A program made the position numbers and the translations under genes. From assembly GCF_003334355.1 (NCBI RefSeq), contig NZ_QOWP01000053.1: a stretch of DNA of 12,534 nucleotides; one strand, given 5' to 3'. Positions within the stretch are counted from its first letter, which is position 1. The number at the start of each line of letters is the position of its first letter. Below, one piece after another: positions 11,772 through 12,534 of the stretch. The stretch comes from Escherichia coli (GTDB lineage Bacteria; Pseudomonadota; Gammaproteobacteria; Enterobacterales; Enterobacteriaceae). The notes under the pieces were generated by a model. The model ran no database searches. It saw nothing but the letters and a program-made list of their open reading frames with translations, and was not told the origin of the DNA.

Positions 11772-12412
11772 ATGGCCATTAAAAAACGCAGTGCAACCGT
11801 TGTGCCTGGCGCATCCGGTGCGGCAGCGGCAGTTAAGAATCCGCAGGCCTCTAAAACCAGCTTCTGGGGTGAACTCCCGCAGCATGTGATGTCAGGGATT
11901 TCACGCATGGTGCCGACCTTAATTATGGGCGGTGTGATCCTCGCTTTCAGCCAGCTGATTGCTTATAGCTGGCTTAAAATTCCTGCTGAGATCGGCATCA
12001 TGGATGCTCTTAATAGCGGGAAATTCTCCGGTTTCGACCTCTCCTTACTTAAATTTGCCTGGCTGTCGCAGTCCTTCGGCGGCGTGTTGTTTGGTTTTGC
12101 CATTCCGATGTTTGCTGCTTTTGTGGCGAACTCTATCGGTGGCAAACTGGCGTTCCCGGCTGGTTTTATCGGCGGGTTGATGTCTACCCAGCCGACGCAA
12201 CTGCTGAACTTCGATCCCAGCACTATGCAATGGGCGACCTCTTCGCCGGTGCCGTCCACCTTCATTGGTGCGCTGATTATTTCTATCGTCGCGGGTTACC
12301 TTGTGAAGTGGATGAACCAGAAAATCCAGTTACCGGATTTCCTGTTAGCGTTCAAAACCACATTTTTGCTCCCGATTCTTTCCGCCATTTTTGTCATGCT
12401 GGCGATGTACTA
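11772..12412 (+). pseudogene. fryC: PTS fructose-like EIIC component, interrupted after about 213 codons by an IS insertion
   Basis: The IIC-type membrane protein starts normally (MAIKKRSATVVPGASGAAAAVKN...). At 12413 the reading frame enters an IS terminal inverted repeat and stops at 12446. A full-length FryC is about 415 aa by recall. Confidence 0.8.
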
Positions 12413-12534
12413 TGATCCTACCCACGTAATATGGACACAGGCCTAAGCGAGGTTCTTGTTTTCAAATTGTTCCGGACTGAGGCCGCCACACCAACTGTGC
12501 CGCCGCCACCGATTGTAATCACATTCGATATAAT
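12413..12534 (-). mobile_element. Right end (IRR) of an IS3-family insertion sequence, most likely IS3 itself; partial, continues beyond the window
   Basis: From 12413 the sequence reads TGATCCTACCCACGTAATATGGACACAGGCCTAAGCGAG, matching my recollection of the IS3 right inverted repeat (TG...terminus). Immediately inside, the minus strand encodes a transposase C-terminus. Confidence 0.75.
12443..12534 (-). CDS. C-terminal fragment (29 codons plus stop) of an IS3-family OrfB transposase; 5' end outside the window
   Basis: Minus-strand translation ...YIECDYNRWRRHSWCGGLSPEQFENKNLA* resembles the conserved IS3-family OrfB C-terminus (YN..RRH..LGY.SP..FE). Too short to appear in the supplied ORF track. 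Confidence 0.7.
   Translation of the reverse strand, partial: YIECDYNRWRRHSWCGGLSPEQFENKNLA

Follow-up and report, generated by a model that had tools for sequence, protein, structure and literature searches.

We find that the fryC gene of this Escherichia coli strain is interrupted by the insertion sequence IS3. The most probable history, to which we assign a probability of roughly 0.92, is that a complete IS3 copy transposed into fryC codon 214 in a recent ancestor of the strain. FryC is a sugar-transporter (PTS) permease whose substrate is still unknown. The stretch of DNA that we analysed, referred to here as the window, comprises 12,534 nt. The annotated counterpart of this stretch in the complete genome PSS-12 (NZ_AP027697.1) gives its gene order as two tRNA-Val genes, gltX, yfeD, yfeC, tRNA-Ala, pdeA, nupC, mntH, ypeC, yfeO, glk, fryB, and the fryC open reading frame (ORF). 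The features at its right-hand end are as follows.

11424..11750, plus strand: fryB, PTS EIIB component, intact (annotated by RefSeq as WP_000038456.1 in the corresponding part of PSS-12).
11772..12412, plus strand: 5' fragment of fryC, 641 of 1,248 nt (query positions 1-641 match fryC at 100% in many E. coli genomes).
11772..12446, plus strand: truncated frame of 214 FryC residues, DPTHVIWTQA, and a TAA stop (ORF list, translation, and comparison with intact FryC).
12410..12412, no strand: CTA, left-hand repeat of the 3-bp duplication of the target site (intact site compared with PSS-12).
12413..12534, minus strand: final 122 nt of IS3 (IS3 nt 1137-1258), ending at the window edge (exact match to the K-12 BW25113 IS3 copy and to the full copy in PSS-12 fryC).
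12413..12451, minus strand: right terminal inverted repeat (IRR) of IS3, 39 nt, with 5'-TG...CA-3' tips (pairs with the far arm in PSS-12).
12443..12534, minus strand: 3' end of the transposase gene (orfB/OrfAB), final 29 codons and TAG (translation; annotated CDS WP_085947771.1).
12464..12494, minus strand: putative outward-facing promoter at the right end of IS3, with hexamers TTGGTG and CAATTT 19 nt apart (located in the sequence; published in PMC12095673).
12512-12538, minus strand: second putative outward signature, TTTAAT-15-TACAAT, cut through by the window end.

The identity of the element and its junction with fryC can be read directly from the window. By comparison with the intact site, the match to fryC ends at 12412, and IS3 starts at 12413. 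From this point to the window edge, the sequence is the exact reverse complement of nt 1137-1258 of the IS3 copy in K-12 BW25113 (122/122 nt), which serves as the reference for the identity of the element; given an exact match over 122 nt, we therefore do not regard the likeness as a chance resemblance. Other members of the IS3 family, such as IS2, IS150, and IS911, were ruled out by the 100% identity to IS3. The sequence TGATCCTACCCACGTAATATGGACACAGGCCTAAGCGAG begins precisely at 12413 and forms one 39-nt terminal inverted repeat arm. Minus-strand translation of 12443-12532 gives YIECDYNRWRRHSWCGGLSPEQFENKNLA followed by a stop codon, the sequence with which OrfB (288 aa) and the OrfAB transposase of IS3 end. 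Because the window ends in the right end of IS3 (IRR), the transposase gene lies antisense to the fry operon. An earlier note on this DNA had claimed an IS3-family element in fryC, a fryC frame that runs normally until it meets an IS end at 12413, a transposase-like C-terminus on the minus strand, and a strain-specific truncation of the PTS IIC component. The first three claims are borne out by the identity to the reversed right end of K-12 IS3, by a frame identical to FryC up to residue 214 that is followed by the repeat arm, and by the encoded OrfB C-terminus. The last agrees with the 224-aa stub described below and with the occurrence of the junction in a single complete E. coli genome.

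The ORF at 11772-12446 starts with ATG, has its TAA stop at 12444-12446, and encodes a predicted product of 224 aa. Residues 1-214 are the same as in the intact FryC (415 aa; WP_000985359.1) shared by E. coli C and K-12. Tyr 214 is retained by chance, as its codon combines TA from fryC with T from the IS, and the final 10 residues, DPTHVIWTQA, are derived from the IS. Exactly this stub is on record as BEB93313.1, 'hypothetical protein'. Against the TIGR01427 fructose EIIC model, the stub aligns to positions 14-160 of 346 with 69.5 bits (cut-off 157.55), and intact FryC aligns to positions 14-346 with 157.0 bits, marginally below the curated cut-off of 157.55. The C-terminal half of EIIC is missing from the window product, which is not a full-length EIIC domain. 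Because the stub spans only this part of the model, FryC permease function is almost certainly lost; judged by its predicted product, the window gene is a fryC fragment and not a functional member of the PTS fructose-family EIIC permeases. The accession of the intact neighbor fryB, the first gene of the fry operon, is common to PSS-12, E. coli C, and K-12.

The far side of the element is visible in PSS-12, which was isolated from human faeces in Ecuador. When a 763-nt junction query was searched against 5,426 complete E. coli genomes, this was the only one to contain the whole query at 100% identity. Its fryC carries a complete 1,258-bp IS3 with CTA flanking both sides, and the intact fryC site, in which CTA is single, reads GATGTACTACGTCATC. 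The two junctions read ...GTACTA/IS3/CTACGTC..., the right-hand CTA corresponding to a position beyond the window end. In the window genome, a simple insertion would read ...CACTATTGCTGGGTAAGATCA/CTACGTCATCACCCCCTTTGG across the left end of IS3, CTA, and the fryC remainder, with CTACGTCATCACC following that IS end. Deletion of IS3 and one CTA in silico from PSS-12 gives a 1,248-nt ORF, and the 415 aa that it encodes match FryC of E. coli C exactly. The completeness of the element, the target duplication, and the exact restorability of fryC are thus observations made in PSS-12. The earlier note had also placed the other IS end about 1.2-1.3 kb away, followed by a direct repeat of CTA and the remainder of fryC. 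The far end was found at 1,258 bp, with both the repeat and the remainder beyond it and with ypdF, ypdE, and fryA (annotated ptsP) next in order; overall, the interpretation of the fryC disruption offered in that note is supported. The window itself ends 122 nt into the IS; for its genome, we infer from PSS-12 both the left end of IS3 and the rest of fryC, the right-hand side of which would be the same as in PSS-12. The residual uncertainty (~5-8%) lies between a simple insertion as in PSS-12 and a secondary IS3-mediated rearrangement.

Elements of the IS3 family characteristically have imperfect terminal inverted repeats of ~20-40 bp with 5'-TG...CA-3' ends, and IS3 itself produces a 3-bp target duplication. 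In the PSS-12 copy, the arms are 39 nt each, are 72% complementary (TGATC...GATCA), and are separated by 1,180 nt. Its orfA (102 aa if started at GTG, 99 aa if started at ATG) and orfB (288 aa) overlap by ATGA. The overlap region contains the slippery site CCAAAAG (IS nt 326-332), at which a -1 shift introduced in silico yields an open, predicted OrfAB fusion of 387 aa, consistent with the 1,163-nt 'programmed frameshift' CDS annotated by RefSeq in PSS-12. RefSeq labels this product 'IS3-like element IS3 family transposase' (WP_085947771.1), an accession shared with the K-12 IS3 copy. OrfB scores 339.2 bits against NCBIfam NF033516, 'IS3 family transposase' (cut-off 160), and contains the Pfam domains rve (E = 1.3e-27), rve_2 (E = 2.2e-20), and HTH_21 (E = 6.6e-12). 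The inverted repeats, the 3-bp duplication, the overlapping ORFs with their slippery site, the DDE/rve domain, and the sequence identity all assign the element to the IS3 family. IS3 matches are found in 4,686 of the 5,426 complete genomes, and the PSS-12 chromosome contains six places matching the query, which we read as several IS3 copies.

The closest known system is IS3 of K-12 (IS3 family, IS3 group; 1,258 bp; insE/insF corresponding to orfA/orfB), to the right end of which the 122 nt of the window are identical. Nucleotides 4-1258 of the K-12 BW25113 copy and the PSS-12 fryC copy are the same (1,255/1,255 nt), as is the transposase accession. The PSS-12 copy further shares with IS3 its inverted repeats of 39 nt, the frameshift site A AAA G, and a 3-bp duplication; only the insertion site is different. 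The BW25113 copy, which lies beside rclC (L004 10938-12195), begins with GCC, whereas the fryC copy begins with TGA and has full TGA...TCA tips. The left tip of the rclC-adjacent copy is thus altered or missing. The second known counterpart is the fryC::IS3 pseudogene of PSS-12 itself (AABK13_RS21200 / RS21205 / RS21210), whose junction, orientation, and flanking genes agree with the window to the base. RefSeq annotates it as two pseudogene halves around the IS3 transposase, the 5' half being described as 'missing C-terminus'.

These features are consistent with a familiar mechanism. IS3-family transposition proceeds by copy-out/paste-in through a circular intermediate, in which the abutted ends form a junction promoter (PMC12095673). 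In the strain's ancestor, the DDE transposase OrfAB would have been made by -1 programmed frameshifting between orfA and orfB, and IS3 would have moved by this route, duplicating the 3-bp target CTA and coming to rest with its transposase gene antisense to the fry operon. The event would have split fryC, leaving a 5' half that encodes only the 224-aa stub, and thus a Fry PTS lacking a functional permease. Translation would halt 11 codons into the IS, producing ~1.2 kb of untranslated antisense IS RNA. Such RNA would be open to Rho-dependent termination and could lower transcription of ypdF-ypdE-fryA from the fry promoter. Given the early stop and the long untranslated stretch, a polar reduction in ypdF-ypdE-fryA expression is expected, on general knowledge of Rho-dependent polarity.

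The right end of IS3 is reported to carry outward-directed signatures, TTTAAT-15-TACAAT and TTGGTG...CAATTT, and a pausing site in the final 50 bp that lowers their output (PMC12095673). An outward promoter, P3R, has also been described (PMC8860574). In the present orientation, the putative right-end signatures point toward the fryC fragment, fryB, and glk and away from ypdF-ypdE-fryA; at most, they would yield antisense RNA over the fryC fragment and fryB. A consensus promoter and terminator scan of PSS-12 from fryB to ypdF, which provides weak evidence, detected no plus-strand promoter-like site near the left end of IS3 and no plus-strand intrinsic terminator inside the element. Since no such terminator was found within IS3, some read-through may be possible. 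Because the signatures face fryB and glk and nothing promoter-like was seen at the left end, polarity on ypdF-ypdE-fryA appears more plausible than activation of these genes by outward IS transcription, the other effect that the earlier note had raised.

The relationship of the window to other assemblies bears on how widespread the allele is. The window is not identical to PSS-12, from which it differs over 12.5 kb by three substitutions and by one tRNA-Ala(GGC) gene instead of two; it would therefore derive from a close relative or from another, short-read assembly. Across 3,740 nt that include the junction, the window has an exact counterpart in contig NRWB01000092.1 of the draft assembly GCA_003293365.1; this contig encodes the same 224-aa stub and likewise stops within the IS. 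A 37-nt junction sequence, GCTGGCGATGTACTA/TGATCCTACCCACGTAATATGG, had no exact match among metagenome contigs (0 contigs). The presence of the junction in PSS-12 and in GCA_003293365.1, together with its absence from the metagenome contigs, argues that the insertion is real, recent, and limited to a small lineage.

Several other observations concern the structure of the window and its neighborhood. The single tRNA-Ala(GGC) gene of the window lies at 2899-2974; in PSS-12 and K-12 there is a tandem pair at a spacing of 115 bp, the PSS-12 pair being located at L003 2784-2859 and 2899-2974. The single copy may represent either a true recombinational loss or a repeat collapsed in short-read assembly. 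Both ends of the window consist of repeated DNA, namely tandem tRNA-Val(UAC) genes (2-77 and 124-199) and IS3 (12413-12534). These repeated ends suggest that the window is the entire short-read contig of a close relative, broken at repeats and perhaps with its tandem tRNA-Ala pair collapsed. An Rfam scan of the window returned three tRNAs only and no regulatory RNA near fryC::IS3. By coordinate arithmetic, NRWB01000092.1 (7,218 bp) starts at the equivalent of window position 5294, within the 3' end of pdeA, which hints at another repeat or IS at this position in the GCA_003293365.1 genome. Between pdeA and nupC, K-12 BW25113 carries an IS4-like element with the annotation IS421 family (L007 7187-8299), and the corresponding intergenic region of the window (5372-5422) is without it. 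With an IS4-like element there in K-12 and IS3 in fryC here, the neighborhood has therefore been hit by different ISs across lineages. Finally, the beginning of mntH is overlapped by a small ORF (6923-6979), which the PSS-12 annotation lists as a hypothetical protein of 18 aa; K-12 has an annotated 29-aa 'protein YpeD' at the matching place.

We considered three other accounts of the junction. The IS3 end at 12413 could mark an IS3-mediated rearrangement in the window genome, whether two copies recombined to give a deletion or an inversion or an adjacent deletion took place; the 3' half of fryC would then not lie beyond IS3, and ypdF-ypdE-fryA could be lost or moved. The far side of IS3 is out of view in a window that ends within the IS, the six query-matching places in the PSS-12 chromosome imply several IS3 copies available for recombination, and adjacent deletions are among the known effects of IS3 (PMC8860574). 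However, the sole complete genome with the junction shows a simple insertion with the CTA duplication intact and fryC perfectly restorable, and the window equals PSS-12 over the shared region apart from three substitutions and one tRNA-Ala copy. A rearrangement would moreover need an extra event beyond the same primary insertion, and we consider it improbable. It is scarcely credible that the junction arose during assembly, by chimeric joining of the end of a fryC contig with the repeated IS3 end, even though the window ends in repeats on both sides (tRNA-Val at 2-77 and 124-199; IS3 at 12413-12534) and lacks one tandem tRNA-Ala gene relative to PSS-12 and K-12, a combination that is typical where repeats have collapsed in a short-read contig. 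The same junction is present, exact to the base, in the independently assembled closed chromosome of PSS-12, complete with the far junction and the target duplication, and again in the second draft assembly, GCA_003293365.1; nor would a chimeric join yield a 3-bp duplication whose removal restores fryC exactly.

The remaining account accepts the insertion and asks whether it has a consequence on which selection acts. That the insertion is not neutral, with an antisense transcript modulating fryB or glucokinase or with loss of the Fry permease selected in a gut lineage, seems very unlikely to us. We also consider it extremely improbable that the insertion has been kept as useful, whether through antisense RNA that silences fryB and the fryC fragment or affects glk, or through an advantage in losing a cryptic PTS permease. 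The putative outward signatures do face fryB and glk, and independent frameshifts of fryC in other E. coli would fit relaxed or positive selection for loss. Against this, occurrence in 1 of 5,426 complete genomes and in 0 metagenome contigs gives no sign of spread, the pausing site in the final 50 bp reportedly dampens promoter activity at the right end (PMC12095673), and recurrent frameshifts are explained equally well by dispensability.

Other fryC pseudogene alleles of E. coli and Shigella have a similar outcome, a truncated EIIC of ~180-260 aa. Unlike the allele described here, those encoding P0007, P0011, and P0013 arose by frameshift and not by IS insertion. P0011 and P0013 diverge right past ...VITP, where the intact gene has a run of five C (L002 ~4648-4656); P0011 occurs on 50 contigs, one of them 4.9 Mb long, and the frameshift alleles as a group are found on large contigs too. 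Many other members of the truncated-FryC cluster are cut by contig ends and annotated 'partial'. On these comparisons, fryC appears to be recurrently pseudogenised, and the independent frameshifts in other strains suggest that the gene is dispensable. Literature searches on fryA, fryB, fryC, ypdE, and ypdF returned no functional study of the operon.

Overall, fryC::IS3 is an ordinary lineage-specific knock-out by a known element and a known mechanism, already annotated in a public genome, and it shows no departure from textbook IS behavior. The window is also an example of IS copies and tRNA repeats setting the limits of short-read contigs. The insertion is of little importance except for strain bookkeeping. 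It deprives the Fry PTS of its permease, and independent frameshifts inactivate this system in other strains as well. It does mark a small E. coli lineage comprising PSS-12, GCA_003293365.1, and the source of the window, and fryC::IS3 could be used to recognize the clone or as a naturally occurring fryC null.
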